Virus genome (UHGV): UHGV-0124386
Origin: a virus
Direction: 5' to 3' (one strand)
DNA length: 51,920 nucleotides
Every line of letters begins with the position of its first letter. The stretch's first letter is position 1. This document shows positions 37,856-43,130 of the stretch, in pieces. A model generated the notes under the pieces. The model was not told the origin of the DNA and ran no database searches. It was given only the letters and a program-made list of their open reading frames with translations. The translations under genes and the position numbers were made by a program.

Positions 37856-40198
37856 ATGGCTACCAGTGTAGGCACAATTTATTACGAAGTTGACGCAAAA
37901 ACAGGACAACTTCTTGTAGCACAACGACAGGCAGACCAGGCCTTTGACCGTATAGAGCGCGGTGCTAAACAGGCCGATCGCCAGGTAAACACACTGAAAA
38001 CATCAATCAAAGCACTGACCAGGGTTATCCATCTGCTAATTGCTGCCGAGGCCGTTAGACAGTTTATGGAAATGGCAGAGCAGGCCAAAATGCTACGCGT
38101 CAAAATCAAAATGCTTACAGGCGACGCGGAATCTGCCGGGCGGGTTTTTGATGGTCTGAAAGAAATATCCAGGGAGACGGGGCAGAGCCTGAAAGATACT
38201 GGCGAATTATGGCAAGGCCTGGCTATCTCACTAAAAAACACCTCCGCTACGGAAGGGCAATTGCTTAACCTGGTTGGCACTATTCAGAAAATGGGTGCAT
38301 TAGGCGGCGCGTCAGCGGAACAGATGTCTAACTCAATGCGTCAATTCCGTCAGTCTATCGACGGCGGTGTTCTTCGTGCCGAAGAATTTAACAGCCTGCT
38401 TGAAAACACGCCGACCATCGTACAAACAATGGCCCGCCATATGGGATTATCAATGGGCCAGTTCCGCGCCGAAATGCTGGACGGCAAGATCACGGCTGAA
38501 AGGATGGTTAACGCAATACAGGCGGCTACGCAGGAAACAAACGATAAGTTTGCTCAGTTGCCGCGCACATCCGGCATGGCTATCAATGAGCTTAAAGTAG
38601 AAATTATGGGCCTTGTTGAGCAGTTGGATGATCTTTTTGGCGTGTCAGATGGCGTTGTTTCAGCTATCGACTTGATCACGAAAGGCGTTAAAGGGCTTGG
38701 CGATGGCGCTAAATTCGCTAAAACCTGCTTCGACACACTCAAAACGGCTGGTAGCGAATTTATCGACATGTTTGATGATGTGGCTGTTAAGGCTGGAGAG
38801 GTGGCAGAGAAGATCATCGCAATGGTGACGCCAATCAAGGCGCTAATGGATGGCTATAAATGGGTGAAGGAGGTAGTAGGAGAGCAAACCGACGAATATA
38901 ACAGCAACTACGAGAAGAAATACGGGAAGACCGTTGGCAAGGTCATGCAACTACAGGATGATCTGACCGCAGCAATCCAGGCTACAGAAGAAGCAAGGAA
39001 AAATGAACAGAATGCTGCCAATGACGGAGCGATTACCGGATTCGACAAGCCAGTAGACAAGCCGAAAAAACAGAAAAAAGAGAAGAAATCGGAAGCTGAT
39101 CGGCTTGGTGACAAAGGTATAAGCGTTTCTGATCAGTACAACAAAGACGCCGCCGCCATGCGCAAAGCGTTGGAGAACGGCAAGGCCATTGATGCTGCAT
39201 TTGCCCAGGGTAAAATCACGCTCCTTGAGTACCGCGCCGCGCAAAAAGGGATCGGCAAGGAACTGAAAGAAGAATTAGCGCAGATCCCGGTAGATGAACT
39301 GCGTGATAAATGGTCGCAAATAGTTAGCCCGATGGACCAGCTAAAAGGCGAGGTTGACCCCATCCAGCAGGCACAAAATGAATGGGCCGTCCGTAAGCAA
39401 ATGCTTATCGACCTGGGCGCTACAGAAGCACAACAGAAACAGGAATTGTTAGCCTATGAGCAGCAGATCCGCGATCTGAAATGGGAGCAGTGGCAGGCGC
39501 AAAGCGACACTAACGGCCTTATCGGTGATTGCGTTAATGGCCTTAAAGGTGGCATGAGCAATGCGCTTGTTGGCCTGCTTAACGGCACTCAATCATTGAG
39601 CGATGTTTTTGCTAACTTAGGGAGCAATATACTAGGGAACATCGGCAACAGGCTTTCTGACATAGCCGCCAACTGGATAGCAGATCAAATCATGATGGAG
39701 ACACAAAGCAAGGCAACGCAGGCCAGCACAACGGCAAGTGCGGTAGCCGCTCAGGGTAGCATCGCTGCGGCAGCGGCCCCGGCAGCGGCGGCAACAGCAG
39801 CATCAACTGGCGGTAGCTGGGCGGCGGCTGGCTCTGCGGCACTCACTGCGATCATGTCTCTGGCAACATCCATCTTCGGTGGCAGGCGCTTTAATGGTGG
39901 TAGCGTCATTGGTGGCAACTTGTACCGTGTCGGGGAAAACAACAGGACGGAGCTATTCCAGACGCCTAACGGGAATCAATATATGATTCCTGGCGAGAAC
40001 GGCAGAGTTATTCCGGGCCGTGATATTGGCGGCGGTGGCGGTATTAGTATGCCTGTCAGTATCAGCATTCAGACAACGAACGGATTCAGCGACGAAGACA
40101 GCCGCAGACTTGAACAGACAATGGAACGTGTAGCTATGAAGATGATAACAAGGGAATCTCAAAGACCGGGCGGAATGTTGCAACCGCGCCGCAAATAA
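37856..40198 (+). CDS. tail tape measure protein (780 aa)
   Basis: Length, coiled-coil-rich sequence, Gly-rich C-terminal region, position before M-L-K-I-J. Confidence 0.85.
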   Translation: MATSVGTIYYEVDAKTGQLLVAQRQADQAFDRIERGAKQADRQVNTLKTSIKALTRVIHLLIAAEAVRQFMEMAEQAKMLRVKIKMLTGDAESAGRVFDGLKEISRETGQSLKDTGELWQGLAISLKNTSATEGQLLNLVGTIQKMGALGGASAEQMSNSMRQFRQSIDGGVLRAEEFNSLLENTPTIVQTMARHMGLSMGQFRAEMLDGKITAERMVNAIQAATQETNDKFAQLPRTSGMAINELKVEIMGLVEQLDDLFGVSDGVVSAIDLITKGVKGLGDGAKFAKTCFDTLKTAGSEFIDMFDDVAVKAGEVAEKIIAMVTPIKALMDGYKWVKEVVGEQTDEYNSNYEKKYGKTVGKVMQLQDDLTAAIQATEEARKNEQNAANDGAITGFDKPVDKPKKQKKEKKSEADRLGDKGISVSDQYNKDAAAMRKALENGKAIDAAFAQGKITLLEYRAAQKGIGKELKEELAQIPVDELRDKWSQIVSPMDQLKGEVDPIQQAQNEWAVRKQMLIDLGATEAQQKQELLAYEQQIRDLKWEQWQAQSDTNGLIGDCVNGLKGGMSNALVGLLNGTQSLSDVFANLGSNILGNIGNRLSDIAANWIADQIMMETQSKATQASTTASAVAAQGSIAAAAAPAAAATAASTGGSWAAAGSAALTAIMSLATSIFGGRRFNGGSVIGGNLYRVGENNRTELFQTPNGNQYMIPGENGRVIPGRDIGGGGGISMPVSISIQTTNGFSDEDSRRLEQTMERVAMKMITRESQRPGGMLQPRRK

Positions 40199-40202
40199 CA
40201 CT

Positions 40203-40228
40203 AAGGCCACTTATAGTGGCCTTTTTCT
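40203..40228. terminator. terminator hairpin after tape measure gene (also at 3' end of antisense gene)
   Basis: AAGGCCAC-TTATA-GTGGCCTT followed by TTTCTT. Confidence 0.65.
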
Positions 40229-40410
40229 TAGTCTACCTCTTCGTTTTTAAACTCACCATCAACAAACTTTTGTAGTCCAGCAATAAGCTGTACAGCCTGC
40301 GACTTGTCAATCACGATGGTGTCAGTCCCCATAAGTTCGGTTATCCACAATACATCATTTTCAAGATCTAACCGGACACCATAACAACGTTTTGTTTCTT
40401 CAATAATCAC
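40228..40410 (-). CDS. hypothetical protein (60 aa), antisense island
   Basis: ORF track. Confidence 0.35.
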   Translation of the reverse strand: MIIEETKRCYGVRLDLENDVLWITELMGTDTIVIDKSQAVQLIAGLQKFVDGEFKNEEVD

Positions 40411-40520
40411 TTTTTTCTCCTACAGTCTGCCGTTACGTGCGATGTAACTCCTACTGGACATCACTAACCAGATGTTCCAGATCTCACGCCAGGTGAATTT
40501 ATCGTCCTTCATATCCCGAC

Positions 40521-40775
40521 TCACTTATGGCAACCGCGCACGCCAGATAATTCATTAAATTTATGATGTTCAACAATCACCCACTCCTTCAGATCCTGGC
40601 TATAGACTCGCCAGTCTAAATTGGCGCGGAAGGCGTAGCCGTAACCGTCTTTTAATTTTTTGGGCGACACATCCTTGTTTAAAAACGCGTTCAAAAGCTC
40701 CCTTGCTTTTTTAACTACACGTTCCGGCGCGTTTTTCTGTGCTTTCAGGTTTTTGTCAATCGCTACCAGTTTCAT
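40521..40775 (-). CDS. candidate RelE/YoeB-superfamily toxin-like protein (84 aa)
   Basis: Pattern ERVVKKARELLNAF...KKLKDGYGYAFRANLDWRVYSQDLKEWVIVEHHKF resembles RelE/YoeB toxins (KRIVKKINELIKD...HRLVY...); preceded by small ORF. Confidence 0.4.
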   Translation of the reverse strand: MKLVAIDKNLKAQKNAPERVVKKARELLNAFLNKDVSPKKLKDGYGYAFRANLDWRVYSQDLKEWVIVEHHKFNELSGVRGCHK

Positions 40776-40792
40776 AACTCACCCCATCATCC

Positions 40793-40948
40793 TTAGTTAA
40801 GTGCCTTCAGGAAGAAGTCCCGGTATTCATCTTCTTTCGCATTCATCATGAATTGACCGTATTTGAATGCGTCGTCGAAACCCTTAACGATTGCTATTTC
40901 CACTTGTTCGAATGCGTTATTTAGCATTACTACTACATAGCGTTTCAT
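40793..40948 (-). CDS. small protein (51 aa) upstream of toxin-like gene; candidate antitoxin
   Basis: Hand-translated MKRYVVVMLNNAFEQVEIAIVKGFDDAFKYGQFMMNAKEDEYRDFFLKALN; excellent SD AGGAGG 8 nt upstream; 17-bp gap to toxin-like gene. Confidence 0.35.
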   Translation of the reverse strand: MKRYVVVMLNNAFEQVEIAIVKGFDDAFKYGQFMMNAKEDEYRDFFLKALN

Positions 40949-41115
40949 TTTGGGCCTCCTTCGTTGGTACTGCTTTCTTCTTGCTTTCTATATACATCTT
41001 GTTGCATGCTACGTGAAGCCATTTTGTAAACTAGCTATAATCATTGTGACAAAGATCTCATTTTTCGCGTAGAAGCGCGTAAAGATATATACAAAATGTA
41101 ACTTGTGGGGGTTTT

Positions 41116-41469
41116 ATGCCGGAAGTGTTCAGATGGACGCCGCAAAGAAGCTACAGCGTGACCAGGGAACCAAACGTATCTGTCATTAAACTTGGTGATG
41201 GGTATGAACAACGCCAGGCGAAAGGGATTAACACATTACTTGATAGTTACACCCTGGTTTTTAAAGGCAGTAGTGCAGGATGCGGCGATGGTGGGAATGT
41301 AGCGATCCAGGCGGAAGCATTCTTGAGGGCGCGTGGCGCTGTCGAGGCTTTTTACTGGTCGCCGTCGATGGATAACGTGCAAAGGCTTTTTGTTTGCCGT
41401 AGCTGGAGCATGACTAAAGACGGTCCGCTATACACGCTAAATGCAACATTTGAGCAAGTTATTAATTAG
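41116..41469 (+). CDS. M: minor tail protein M (lambda gpM-like, 117 aa)
   Basis: Aligns with recalled lambda M (FRW, GDGY.QR...G.N, C..WS, EFEQV(I/V)N C-terminus). Confidence 0.8.
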   Translation: MPEVFRWTPQRSYSVTREPNVSVIKLGDGYEQRQAKGINTLLDSYTLVFKGSSAGCGDGGNVAIQAEAFLRARGAVEAFYWSPSMDNVQRLFVCRSWSMTKDGPLYTLNATFEQVIN

Positions 41470-41480
41470 AGGGAGGGGAT

Positions 41481-41663
41481 ATGCCTTATTTTTGTGTAGT
41501 GGAGCGCACTGGCGCTTTTACATTGTTCGCCGACTATGAAATTAATGATCTTACTGTCCGGGCTGATAATGGCGAGACGTGGTATCTTCATGATATGGGT
41601 GATGGATATATCGGCTGTACGACTTGGGATGGCAAAGAAGTAGCATTTCTATCCTACGATTAA
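41481..41663 (+). CDS. small hypothetical protein (60 aa) between M and L
   Basis: ORF track; followed by terminator. Confidence 0.35.
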   Translation: MPYFCVVERTGAFTLFADYEINDLTVRADNGETWYLHDMGDGYIGCTTWDGKEVAFLSYD

Positions 41664-41670
41664 AAAAACA

Positions 41671-41691
41671 CCCCGCCACGGCGGGGTTTAT
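41671..41691 (+). terminator. rho-independent terminator
   Basis: CCCCGC-CACG-GCGGGG followed by TTTAT. Confidence 0.6.
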
Positions 41692-41763
41692 AGTGTCGAT
41701 AGCAGAATGCATGACAATCCAATAATGATAATGATCATTTCCAGAACGTAATGTTCGCACATC

Positions 41764-42475
41764 TCATAACGCCCCCTTCAAATATGTCAATCCCTTATCA
41801 GTGACGAATGAGTGATTAACCTGGTTTTCATCCGTCATGATGATAAATAACTTTTCCTGTAGGTATTTCGCTTTAGGGTACAGCGTTAAGCAGACCTGGT
41901 ACAGTATCCCGCGCTCAATCAGCAAATCAATAAATTCGTGTTCATGATAACCGATAAGGCGGGCGGCCTGTTTCAACGTGTATACATAATCACTGTGATT
42001 GCGCCGCGCCATGTTCTTTATAGTACCCTCCGATTTCGTGCGCTTCTTTTGAGGCGTTACACGCATCAAGGTAGCTATTAAAACACCCTATATGCCGATA
42101 CACCCCACTAATCATCACTCTTACAATCCATTTTTTATTCGCTTCATTCCACCATACGCCAATGCACCCGCTCTTATTCCTTCTGGATAACGGCATATTT
42201 TTCATGTTTTCTTGTTTTGTTATCATTCTTAGATTTTATATTCTGTTATCACTCCTTATATGGTTTATATGGTCAATCACATACCCTTCTGGGATCGGGC
42301 CGTTGTGCATTTCCCAAATTATGTTGTGTGCCTTATACTTTTTATTTTGCACACAGATAACAATATACCCGTTGTGCAAACTTCCGGCTTCCTTGCCGTT
42401 GGTAATTCTACCGCTTGTTGGTATCTTCCAGAATAATTTCCCTTCATTATAAGTAAAGATGTTGTACCATTTCAT
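41764..42475 (-). pseudogene. disrupted HNH-AP2 homing endonuclease (HNH_3 domain, AP2 domain, C-terminal HTH region split into three ORFs)
   Basis: ORF 42236..42475 carries the HNH_3 core (HNGYIVICVQNKKYKAHNIIWEMHNGPIPEGYVIDHINHIRSDNRI) and stops at an in-frame TAA where the family motif DNRIENLR has Glu; ORF 41990..42226 continues NLR-MITKQENMKN and has the AP2 pattern (SGCIGVWWNEANKKWIVRV...GCFNSYLDACNASKEA); ORF 41764..42069 is frameshifted relative to it. Confidence 0.6.
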
Positions 42476-42480
42476 AATTT

Positions 42481-42885
42481 TTAATCAAAGCAACTTAAAT
42501 TGTCGATACAGAAATCTTTTGCCGCTTTTTCGTATTCGCGTTTTGCATCAGGATCATCAGCCGGGAAACCCTTTGCGTGTATTTCACCAGGGCAAGACTG
42601 ATCCATAGAGTCAGCAAAATTAACATTGACGTTAAAGTTAATATCTTTCGGGTTCATATCTTCCACCTTCTCATCTATTTGTACCTGAGTTATTTTGAAT
42701 TCCCTGGCGCGCCCGAAGAAGCGAACAAGTTTTTCTCCTTCCTCGACTGCCATTTCGTAACTGTCATATAATCCGTAACCTTCCCAATCTTTACTGCCTG
42801 CCATCCATACATCTAGACGGTATTTTTGCATTTTACTGATCCCCGCTTTTAATCGGTTTAATCCGGTAGCCCAGGACGCGATCAT
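42481..42885 (-). CDS. hypothetical protein (up to 134 aa; likely start at MQKYRL)
   Basis: ORF track. Confidence 0.35.
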   Translation of the reverse strand: MIASWATGLNRLKAGISKMQKYRLDVWMAGSKDWEGYGLYDSYEMAVEEGEKLVRFFGRAREFKITQVQIDEKVEDMNPKDINFNVNVNFADSMDQSCPGEIHAKGFPADDPDAKREYEKAAKDFCIDNLSCFD

Positions 42886-43039
42886 CTTTTTCTGATAGGT
42901 AAATGGACGTTTCTAAGGCGTCGCTAGGGTTATCGAATTCAGCCTCGATATCACGCCCGTTACTCACAAATAAGGTCAGTCTCCATAGTTTATCGTTCAT
43001 CCCGCGCCCTTTGTGCCATTTTGTTAACTTCCCCTTCAT
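42833..43039 (-). CDS. hypothetical protein (68 aa)
   Basis: ORF track. Confidence 0.3.
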   Translation of the reverse strand: MKGKLTKWHKGRGMNDKLWRLTLFVSNGRDIEAEFDNPSDALETSIYLSEKDDRVLGYRIKPIKSGDQ

Positions 43040-43130
43040 TTGAGTAAAATATACATATTGTAAAAACCTCGATCAATCCATTTTGGTATGATTTAGCGTG
43101 ACGCAGATCACAAAATGACAAGGTGAGAAA

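Follow-up and report, generated by a model that had tools for sequence, protein, structure and literature searches.

Between the tail genes M and L of the phage genome UHGV-0124386, several open reading frames (ORFs) run antisense to the tail operon. In a sequence-only reading, three of these ORFs were joined into one free-standing homing endonuclease, decayed by a nonsense codon and a frameshift, and the two genes upstream were taken as its possible cargo. Which of the ORFs belong to one gene, is that gene mobile, and what became of it in this phage? We addressed these questions by comparing the window, i.e. the whole 51,920-nt stretch of DNA, with related phages and with homologous proteins.

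The M-L interval and its resident genes

The window belongs to a temperate E. coli phage of the mEp021-like (mEpimmI) group, and its overall GC content is 45.8%. The M-L interval contains one cassette, antisense to the tail operon, in the order promoter, 68-aa gene, 116-aa gene, KilAC-domain gene and terminator (Table 1). All mEp021-like phages have the three genes of this cassette, no matter whether the homing endonuclease gene (HEG) is present or absent. The promoter candidate is a consensus match alone, and such matches in the region are not above the shuffle expectation; its sequence is almost invariant among six aligned phages. Terminators are annotated at the equivalent position in mEp021 and mEp554. 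No tRNA gene was found in the window, and no credible Rfam match to a structured RNA across positions 40000..44000. The words 'HNH', 'homing' and 'moron' are all absent from the text of the paper that described the mEpimmI phage group.

Table 1. Features of the M-L interval and its borders
Feature	Position	Strand	Evidence or remark
Tail gene M	41116..41469	+	Pfam Phage_min_tail, 3e-28; left border of the interval
Intrinsic terminator, hairpin and T-run	41670..41687	-	End of the antisense cassette
KilAC-domain gene, 82 aa, intact and separate	41764..42012 (ATG 42012)	-	Pfam ANT, phrog_5689
Endonuclease codons 81-161 and TGA	41990..42235	-	Same frame as codons 1-79
Inserted segment carrying the HEG	42016..42483 (468 nt)	-	Junction alignments with HEG-less relatives
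Nonsense codon	42236..42238	-	TAA here; GAA (Glu80 of DNRIENLR) in all intact alleles
Endonuclease codons 1-79 and premature TAA	42236..42475	-	Pfam HNH_3, E=1.6e-15
116-aa cassette gene	42481..42831	-	phrog_38567, E=9e-48; in all relatives
68-aa cassette gene, first of the antisense unit	42833..43039	-	phrog_29559, E=1e-10
Sigma-70-like promoter candidate of the cassette	43048..43076	-	TTGATC-17-TATATT, pattern scan
Tail gene L	43131..43835	+	Pfam Phage_tail_L, 6e-71; right border of the interval

The ORF at 41764..42069, which had been taken as the C-terminal part of the endonuclease, is a mechanical TTG-start version of the 82-aa KilAC gene; its N-terminal extension falls within the insert, which HEG-less relatives lack. 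Proteins of the same length and of 90-100% identity are encoded in seven relatives with or without the HEG. KilAC/ANT domains are associated with nucleic acids, and in phage antirepressors they can be joined to other modules. Like those antirepressors, the 82-aa protein exceeds the Pfam ANT threshold (30.0 bits, cut-off 25.3, E=7e-7); it carries such an annotation in RefSeq and also in mEp021 ('putative antirepressor', mEp021_71). Characterized antirepressors add a Bro-N, KilA-N or AntA domain; the 82-aa protein carries none of them and no other Pfam domain, it is a stand-alone C-terminal domain and its antirepressor role is putative.

The 116-aa gene had been given as 42481..42885 (134 aa). 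Its conserved start, MQKYRLDVW, and the gene calls on 16 related contigs agree with the shorter extent listed in Table 1; its stop codon lies 5 nt ahead of the endonuclease ATG. Beyond ANT, the 116-aa, 68-aa and KilAC proteins have no Pfam match, and none of them has a PADLOC or PDB sequence match. All three are intact resident genes, neither parts nor cargo of the element, and 41764..42012 and 42481..42831 should be annotated as an independent KilAC-domain gene and as a 116-aa gene, respectively.

The endonuclease gene is a single frame interrupted by one nonsense codon

The 79-aa ORF at 42236..42475 ends in ...HINHIRSDNRI, which is followed by TAA at 42238..42236. Beyond the TAA, the frame runs on in phase (NLR-MITKQEN...) to a TGA at 41992..41990, and the last 23 nt of the gene overlap the first 23 nt of the KilAC gene. 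The conceptual read-through product is 161 aa in length; it matches the intact E. coli protein P0039, which was found on 29 contigs, everywhere except the stop, and it is 99% identical to P0001, which carries Glu at position 80. Alignment to the intact endonucleases thus placed the nonsense at codon 80, in agreement with the proposal that an in-frame TAA replaces the Glu codon of DNRIENLR; it gave no frameshift, and the C-terminal part proposed to lie in another frame is the separate KilAC gene, since the intact alleles end at the same TGA.

The lesion is one GAA>TAA change (G>T) at position 42238. At nt 238 of the ORF, the window and seven other contigs have T, and the nine intact contigs have G; between the window and these nine, only 2-3 nt differ in 486 nt, the GAA>TAA change among them. 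Apart from the nonsense substitution, there is one other nucleotide difference, and that from some intact alleles only. The term 'decayed' was right about the nonsense codon and overstated the rest; the copy in the window is most likely dead yet otherwise undecayed.

Besides the window, at least eight independent samples contain the TAA allele (JGI 3300029816, OBJQ01, ERZ27272349, ERZ28595860, SRR24136896, SRR35867538, SRR2912794 and SRR27675045); they were assembled with differing pipelines. The contigs L008-L014 and L026, which come from independent samples, carry it in identical form, and their flanks are 99.95-100% identical; there are two further TAA loci, one of which (L094) duplicates the IMG/VR contig L008. 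The truncated 79-aa product is also present in RefSeq as WP_350200066.1, from NCBI E. coli assemblies. The TAA contigs represent one near-clonal phage lineage; they show that the allele is real, not for how long it has persisted. On another contig, a separate broken allele carries a frameshift (P0052 and P0047). The region 41990..42475 is best annotated as one pseudogene of an HNH-AP2 homing endonuclease that carries a nonsense at codon 80.

Domain organization and structure of the endonuclease

The HNH_3 domain was readily identified. The 79-aa fragment matches profile positions 1-33 of 46 with 56.9 bits (E=1.6e-15) and the intact P0001 protein scores 83.2 bits (9.9e-24), both above the curated cut-off of 24.8 bits. 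Residues 3-158 match PHROG 99, 'HNH endonuclease', at 8e-60, and a profile built of 28 homologues matches the I-HmuI structure (1u3e) at 3.3e-10. In positions 103-155, the same profile matches AP2/ERF structures, i.e. WRI1 (8e-8), TEM1 (1e-4) and also ERF096 and AtERF1, with values ranging from 8e-8 to 0.09. The Pfam AP2 model has no match to this endonuclease sequence alone; it is recorded for several homologues. The AlphaFold (AF2) model has an overall pLDDT of 92.6, low only at residues 150-161; its top fold match is I-HmuI, and it superposes on the AP2 domains of TEM1 and AtERF1 at 1.4-1.5 Å. In the model, the AP2-type domain (residues about 103-150) consists of the strands 107-110, 115-122 and 125-132 and the helix 135-149. 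A C-terminal AP2-type DNA-binding domain, predicted as one three-stranded sheet packed on a helix, is thus supported at the family level, and the proposal of a free-standing HNH_3 and AP2 homing endonuclease gene held.

Codons 1-79 encode the N-terminal β-strands and the first half of the HNH (ββα-metal) motif, D68 and H69 included. The model places strand 65-69 in this part, and strand 82-86 and helix 87-92 in the part encoded by codons 81-161. D68, H69 and N90 are invariant in the family alignment, and all invariant motif residues are still encoded in the window. However, the TAA at codon 80 parts H69 and N77 from N90, so that the complete ββα-metal motif (D68/H69, N77, N90) is not on one polypeptide, as it is in the intact alleles P0001 and P0039. 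The 28 family members are 144-206 aa in size (intact members about 155-170) and end at a conserved G-[FY]-H-x-x-H-G, where the window ORF also ends. None of them has an extra domain, which argues against the HTH-like third part that had been assigned to the endonuclease.

Insertion site and spread of the endonuclease gene

Five HEG-less relatives (MLI107, MagusPhagus, mEp554, STEC308 and E21845) were compared at the junctions, and the junction positions are identical in all of them. In place of the insert, the relatives have an 11-12-nt stretch, AAATA(A)GGCGGC; the insertion slot is the spacer of roughly 10 nt between the 116-aa and KilAC genes. The insert has a GC content of 38%, compared to the 45.8% of the window. 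The HEG is present at this one precise site in the window, in L008-L023 and in L026, and absent from the five relatives. Both the intact copies and the empty sites expected of a mobile-element insertion inside the tail module therefore exist among related phages.

Across three phage backgrounds, the HEG is 99.6-99.8% identical. Beside it, the 116-aa gene shares 78-81% of its nucleotides between the backgrounds, the 68-aa gene 62-65% and L 86-90%; in L016, the divergence is found on both sides of the HEG. Together with the HEG, about 60-105 nt to its left and at least 120 nt to its right are near-identical in the three diverged backgrounds, and this tract stands out from the surrounding DNA, which is much less alike between genomes. 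All HEG-positive loci have one flank haplotype in common, in which two SNPs, at window positions 41993 and 41982 (nt 20 and 31 of the KilAC gene), are exclusive to them. The contrast between 99.6-99.8% for the HEG and 62-90% for its neighbours indicates that the gene has probably spread horizontally in recent times. Because the flanking genes are found in HEG-free relatives and are diverged beside the HEG, they are not cargo, and the HEG arrived later.

The same slot is filled by other unrelated small genes (75-93 aa) in mEp021, FAH and N25, and the neighbouring H-M cassette of relatives contains paralogous HNH and T5orf172-type nuclease genes. The window has no second copy or paralogue of the endonuclease. 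At the nucleotide level, the HEG is absent from 5,426 complete RefSeq E. coli genomes and 50,697 GenBank phages, in which the matches are confined to the conserved HNH core of paralogues; nor was it found in the GTDB representative genomes.

Two candidates for the target of the element were considered. The GCC-box-like GGCGGC, as a possible AP2 target, is present at the empty sites of MLI107, MagusPhagus and mEp554 and absent from those of STEC308 and E21845, and is no more than a tentative lead. The KilAC flank, as a protected target with unusual DNA conservation, was rejected: its third-codon-position identity is 77-89%, no higher than that of M and L. An identical gene in diverged flanks could also result if conserved flanking stretches recombined by the ordinary homologous route, with no endonuclease at work.

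A model for the locus and its alternatives

Very probably, an HNH-AP2 homing endonuclease inserted into the resident antisense cassette and was then inactivated by a single nonsense change, and the flanking genes are residents. A free-standing HNH(HNH_3)-AP2 HEG has inserted precisely in the spacer of about 10 nt between the 116-aa and KilAC genes. By analogy with its family, the AP2 domain of the intact form would recognize one particular site in relatives that lack the endonuclease, where the ββα-metal site of the HNH domain would nick or cut the DNA. Repair by recombination from the HEG-bearing genome, during co-infection or in an infected lysogen, would copy the gene and its short flanks into the recipient. 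It is from family membership and population pattern that we infer cleavage and homing for this gene. In the lineage of the window, a single G>T change turned Glu80 (GAA) into TAA; as a result, His69 and Asn90 of the catalytic motif are parted, and translation ends ahead of the DNA-binding domain. The TAA copy most likely represents an early stage in the cycle in which HEGs invade, become fixed and degenerate.

Three ORFs adjacent on one strand, the last two overlapping, and the known fusions of KilAC/ANT with other modules in antirepressors could be read as one three-part endonuclease (HNH, AP2 and C-terminal HTH-like) with a nonsense codon, a frameshift and two cargo genes upstream. That reading is scarcely tenable: intact alleles are 161 aa long and end at the same TGA, the 28 family members end at G-[FY]-H-x-x-H-G, the KilAC ORF has its own ATG in HEG-less relatives (82 aa, 90-100% identity), and the TTG-start extension lies inside the insert, missing from those relatives. 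As for cargo, the 116-aa and 68-aa genes exist without the HEG, and their 62-81% identity stands against 99.6-99.8% for the HEG. The one-base difference from intact alleles would also fit a sequencing or assembly error in a gene that is intact in the real phage. Such an error is extremely improbable, and was ruled out as the source of the TAA by the same allele in the independent samples, processed with different pipelines, and in RefSeq; moreover, the TAA context contains no long homopolymer. It is less far-fetched, though still unlikely, that no homing element is involved and the gene is a resident accessory nuclease, e.g. for prophage exclusion or defence, exchanged like a moron through conserved flanks. 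Unrelated small genes alternate in the slot, the unit has its own promoter-like site and terminator as is typical of lysogen-expressed morons, and weak PADLOC 'HEase' matches (2e-7) were obtained. However, HNH_3 plus AP2, PHROG 99 and the I-HmuI likeness are the architecture and family of homing endonucleases; the insert consists of precisely one ORF and minimal flanking sequence, in a 10-nt spacer; the HNH and T5orf172-type paralogues in the H-M cassette of relatives form a pattern typical of HEGs; and the gene is readily lost or inactivated. To exclude HEG-less relatives and to home are two aspects of one activity, so this explanation differs mainly in emphasis.

The TAA allele might instead be functional somehow, by low-level read-through to an attenuated full-length enzyme, by re-initiation at Met84 to give a regulator or a protector of the target site, or by spread of the defunct gene in trans through an active relative, which we regard as quite improbable. 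UAA is the most efficient stop codon of E. coli, and it serves as stop in other genes here; since the window has no tRNA gene, the phage provides no suppressor of the TAA, and suppression by a phage tRNA was rejected. An in-frame ATG for Met84 lies at 42226, three codons (9 nt) past the stop, but no clear Shine-Dalgarno sequence precedes it. The lineage is widely sampled and no second lesion has accumulated; however, the lack of further decay is uninformative, as the intact alleles in the subclade show just as little variation and the TAA contigs are near-clonal, and the independent frameshift in another allele is what neutral decay predicts. There is a precedent in the defunct endonuclease gene mobilized in trans in the case of T4 mobE and I-TevIII (PMC2790892), and co-option of HEG DNA-binding domains by satellites and plants has been discussed (PMC10448857). 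A re-initiated Met84 product could act as a free AP2 DNA-binding protein on the HEG target or the control region of the cassette, or the disabled gene could hitch-hike on cuts made by intact alleles or paralogues in related prophages; either is as improbable as a functional allele in general. If true, the Met84 AP2 protein would be a first step in domesticating an HEG DNA-binding domain as a temperate-phage regulator.

Comparison with known systems

An insertion followed by inactivation, as preferred here, has several counterparts. HNH-AP2 genes are a recognized class of phage HEGs in T4-related genomes (PMC2993671, Table 5), and ICP1 contains related IPA-HNH genes and, in gp115/gp116, an example inactivated by frameshift (PMC10448857). 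Like phage HNH-AP2 HEGs, the window gene combines an N-terminal HNH_3 with a C-terminal AP2-type domain in about 160 aa; as a single free-standing ORF it lies between conserved phage genes, and it is present in some close relatives and absent from others. Like ICP1 gp115/gp116, the copy is inactivated, by a nonsense codon here and by a frameshift there. However, outside the E. coli prophage clade its nearest phage counterparts, in Seszw and MezzoGao, share only 44-48% identity with it. Its host is a temperate siphovirus, and its place is a moron cassette antisense to the tail module, not the vicinity of replication or packaging genes in a lytic phage.

I-HmuI of Bacillus phage SPO1 is the best solved-structure match to the nuclease half, by profile and by fold, and has the same DH...N...N catalytic arrangement. 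Different from the window HEG, I-HmuI is intron-encoded and has a C-terminal helical/HTH DNA-binding module and no AP2 domain; the identity is about 20%. The free-standing T4 mobE and seg HEGs provide examples of intergenic insertion, short-flank co-conversion and defunct copies (PMC2988022, PMC2790892). The window locus resembles them in its insertion between conserved genes, its short-flank co-conversion and its defunct copy, and fits the cyclical model in which HEGs invade, degenerate and are lost. The T4 genes belong to other nuclease subfamilies and hosts, and their homing was demonstrated experimentally, while here we infer it.

An HEG killed by a nonsense codon is a normal phase in the life history of these elements; the main value of the analysis is correct annotation, and current understanding is unchanged. 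The locus adds the antisense tail-module cassettes of mEp021-like (mEpimmI) temperate coliphages to the landing sites for HEGs. Alleles of four kinds (empty, intact, nonsense and frameshift) can be found in public data, and together they form a natural series for homing and decay in temperate phages.

An antisense cassette between tail genes M and L

The right half of the window shows 84–86% nucleotide identity to Escherichia phages MagusPhagus, mEp021, mEp010, mEp044, mEp554, mEp515 and mEp013, temperate coliphages of the Nus-dependent non-lambdoid 'mEpimmI' group (PMC11893012). In all relatives, the M–L interval contains one minus-strand unit; it runs from a sigma-70-like site through a 51–68-aa gene, a 114–116-aa gene and a KilAC gene to an intrinsic terminator. 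The 116-aa and 68-aa genes of the window belong to PHROGs of unknown function, and neither protein has a Pfam, PADLOC or PDB sequence match. The 116-aa gene had been drawn to 42885; its conserved start and the calls on related contigs place its 5' end as tabulated. RefSeq names the 55–62-aa first cassette gene of N25 and locus L004 (WP_085654716.1, WP_097446393.1) 'transporter'; no family match backs this name for the window homologue. On the plus strand, a conserved 60-aa ORF lies immediately 3' of M, and the hairpin 41670..41687 comes next; the mEp021 annotation gives this hairpin as a bidirectional terminator.

Features of the M–L and H–M intervals in the window
Feature	Position	Strand	Description
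ParE-like toxin-domain protein	40521..40775	-	84 aa; Pfam ParE_like, 3e-8
51-aa ORF upstream of ParE-like gene	40793..40948	-	H–M cassette; no family
Tail protein M	41116..41469	+	Pfam Phage_min_tail, 3e-28
60-aa ORF	41481..41663	+	phrog_3249, function unassigned; mEp021_70
Intrinsic terminator	41687..41670	-	closes antisense unit
116-aa gene	42481..42831	-	PHROG 38567; conserved start MQKYRLDVW; gene calls on 16 related contigs
68-aa gene	42833..43039	-	PHROG 29559
Sigma-70-like candidate site	43076..43048	-	TTGATC-17-TATATT, nearly invariant
Tail protein L	43131..43835	+	Pfam Phage_tail_L, 6e-71

A nonsense codon interrupts the HNH gene

The minus-strand ORF 42236..42475 encodes 79 aa, ending in ...VIDHINHIRSDNRI before a TAA. 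Beyond the TAA, the HNH frame stays open (NLR-MITKQENMKNM...) up to the TGA at 41990; the sequence-only reading, DNRI-stop-NLR, was exactly right. The 79-aa fragment matches Pfam HNH_3 (E=1.6e-15) over profile positions 1–33 of 46 only, the remainder of the motif being encoded past the TAA. By protein search, P0001, an intact 161-aa E. coli protein with Glu at position 80, is 99% identical over its full length to the conceptual read-through protein. P0039, from the 90% cluster of P0001, equals the window translation except for the stop; it is on record from 29 contigs, one of them a 5.15-Mb E. coli chromosome. Compared with nine intact contigs, the 486-nt ORF has just 2–3 nucleotide differences. 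ORF nt 238 (window 42238) is T in the window and G in the intact contigs (GAA>TAA), and another difference, nt 469, lies within the overlap with the KilAC gene. Since Glu is the family consensus at this codon (DNRIENLR in the homologue alignment), the TAA is the derived state. One nonsense substitution is the whole lesion.

The nonsense codon had been paired with a frameshift, the third ORF being read as an HTH-like C-terminal part in another frame. That part of the proposal was rejected: the intact alleles are 161 aa long with the same TGA, and the third ORF is an independent gene, kept in HNH-free relatives. ORF 41764..42069 is a mechanical TTG-start version of an 82-aa gene with its ATG at 42012; the 57-nt N-terminal extension lies within inserted DNA and is absent from HNH-free relatives. 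The 82-aa protein matches Pfam ANT (KilAC domain) over threshold (E=7e-7) and is annotated separately, at 90–100% identity, in all relatives examined, with or without the HNH gene (mEp021_71, 'putative antirepressor'; RefSeq, 'phage antirepressor KilAC domain-containing protein').

The TAA allele was found without any difference (0/486 nt) on contigs of independent samples, namely JGI 3300029816 (= IMG/VR UViG_3300029816_000005), OBJQ01000540, two ENA assemblies and four SRA runs, and also within NCBI E. coli assemblies, where its 79-aa product is WP_350200066.1. The allele is therefore real and in circulation. The TAA contigs are 99.95–100% identical to the window across up to 8.2 kb and represent a single phage lineage, sampled repeatedly. 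Searches of 5,426 complete RefSeq E. coli genomes, 50,697 GenBank phages and the GTDB representatives, at the nucleotide or close-protein level, did not find the HNH gene.

Domain structure of the intact protein

The intact protein matches HNH_3 with 83 bits and PHROG 99 'HNH endonuclease' over residues 3–158 (8e-60). A profile of 28 homologues matches the HNH homing endonuclease I-HmuI (1u3e; 3e-10) at positions 36–114 and the plant AP2/ERF domains of WRI1 (8e-8), TEM1 (1e-4), ERF096 and AtERF1 at positions 103–155. I-HmuI is also the top PDB fold match of the AlphaFold model, and the C-terminal sheet and helix of the model fit the AP2 domains of TEM1 and AtERF1 to within 1.4–1.5 Å. The Pfam AP2 model does not detect the domain in the single sequence, so the AP2 assignment rests on profile and fold evidence. 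HNH and AP2 thus stand from the three-part endonuclease first proposed; the third part is the separate KilAC gene. Relatives at 33–48% identity are 144–206 aa long and end in a conserved G-[FY]-H-x-x-H-G, the window counterpart being G-Y-Y-K-E-H-G.

The model has an overall pLDDT of 92.6, low for residues 150–161 only. The stop falls after strand 65–69 (D68, H69) and before strand 82–86 and helix 87–92 (invariant N90); therefore, the beta-beta-alpha-metal finger is cut, and the DNA-binding domain lies downstream of the stop. As judged from the model, the 79-aa product should be inactive.

Insertion site, probable homing and resident neighbours

Comparison with relatives yielded both intact copies and empty sites. 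In MLI107, MagusPhagus, mEp554, STEC308 and E21845, ~10 nt separate the 116-aa stop from the KilAC ATG (...GATAAATA(A)GGCGGCAAC-ATG). All HNH-bearing loci, the window among them, have 468 nt (42016..42483; GC 38% vs 45.8% for the window) in place of this spacer (...GAT-TAAAAATT-[ATG...TATAAAG]-AAC-ATG). The 116-aa protein ends in ...CFD in all endonuclease-bearing genomes (window 42484..42486) and in ...FDK in empty-site relatives; the insertion junction thus removed the terminal Lys codon. At the other end, the HNH ORF overlaps the KilAC 5' end by 23 nt in a different frame, its final five codons and stop being host sequence. The stop position within host sequence is all that distinguishes the 158-, 161- and 177-aa alleles, and this origin of the C-terminal residues agrees with the low pLDDT there. 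The same slot holds unrelated ORFs in mEp021 (mEp021_72, 75 aa), FAH (77 aa) and N25 (93 aa), none with a Pfam or PHROG match, which makes it a general hot spot of gene acquisition.

Intact alleles occur in at least two backgrounds besides that of the window. In the L015-type loci, the right side of the insert (KilAC, 60-aa gene, M, ParE-like gene) is 97–100% identical to the window, and the left side is diverged (116-aa gene 81%, 68-aa gene 64%, L 87%). In the L016 type, divergence extends to either side of the insert (60-aa gene 78%, ParE-like 67%, 116-aa gene 78%, 68-aa gene 62%). Across all three, the HNH segment is 99.6–99.8% identical. All HNH-bearing loci have a single flank haplotype in common, which extends ~60–105 nt to the left and 120 nt or more to the right. 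Of the differences within KilAC nt 1–31, two substitutions, one of them Gly7Ser, are present in every HNH-bearing locus and in 0/7 HNH-free loci. A near-identical gene with shared flanks is the pattern that homing with co-conversion would leave; a nuclease gene at a genetic-exchange boundary is also described in other phages (PMC10448857). The identity pattern could equally come from ordinary recombination within the conserved flanks, without endonuclease action. The upstream genes, suggested earlier to be cargo, are strongly diverged beside the near-invariant endonuclease gene and exist without it; they are therefore residents.

Recurrent decay and relation to known elements

A different allele of the HNH gene has a frameshift after KQENMK, which splits it into P0052 (117 aa) and P0047 (41 aa) on one 59,751-nt Logan contig. 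This inactivation is independent, and decay of the gene is recurrent. Among phage homing endonucleases, HNH-AP2 enzymes form an established category (PMC2993671, Table 5); the original description of the architecture is cited in PMC10448857, where an ICP1 copy inactivated by a frameshift is also reported. It is textbook knowledge that free-standing endonuclease genes lie between conserved phage genes, that flanks are co-converted and that defunct copies occur (PMC2988022, PMC2790892). Within this class, the element is an ordinary member that was inactivated recently. The core observation and the element itself stood; in place of two lesions, three domains and cargo neighbours, there are one lesion, two domains and residents. 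Compared with known HNH-AP2 genes, three things are specific: its temperate mEp021-like coliphage host, its site in a moron cassette that runs antisense inside the tail operon, and the availability of empty, intact, nonsense and frameshift alleles. The publication on the mEpimmI group makes no mention of the gene.

A second antisense cassette, conserved in relatives, lies in the H–M interval (tape-measure gene to M); its ParE-like gene and 51-aa ORF are possibly a toxin-antitoxin pair. In the E21845 prophage, this cassette contains a paralogous 160-aa HNH gene (L024 3247..3729), 45% identical to P0001, which overlaps the end of the ParE-like gene; in L016 it contains a 181-aa CapR/T5orf172-type gene (L016 6072..6617). 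With nuclease genes in both, the two tail-module antisense cassettes seem to serve homing endonuclease genes as landing sites.
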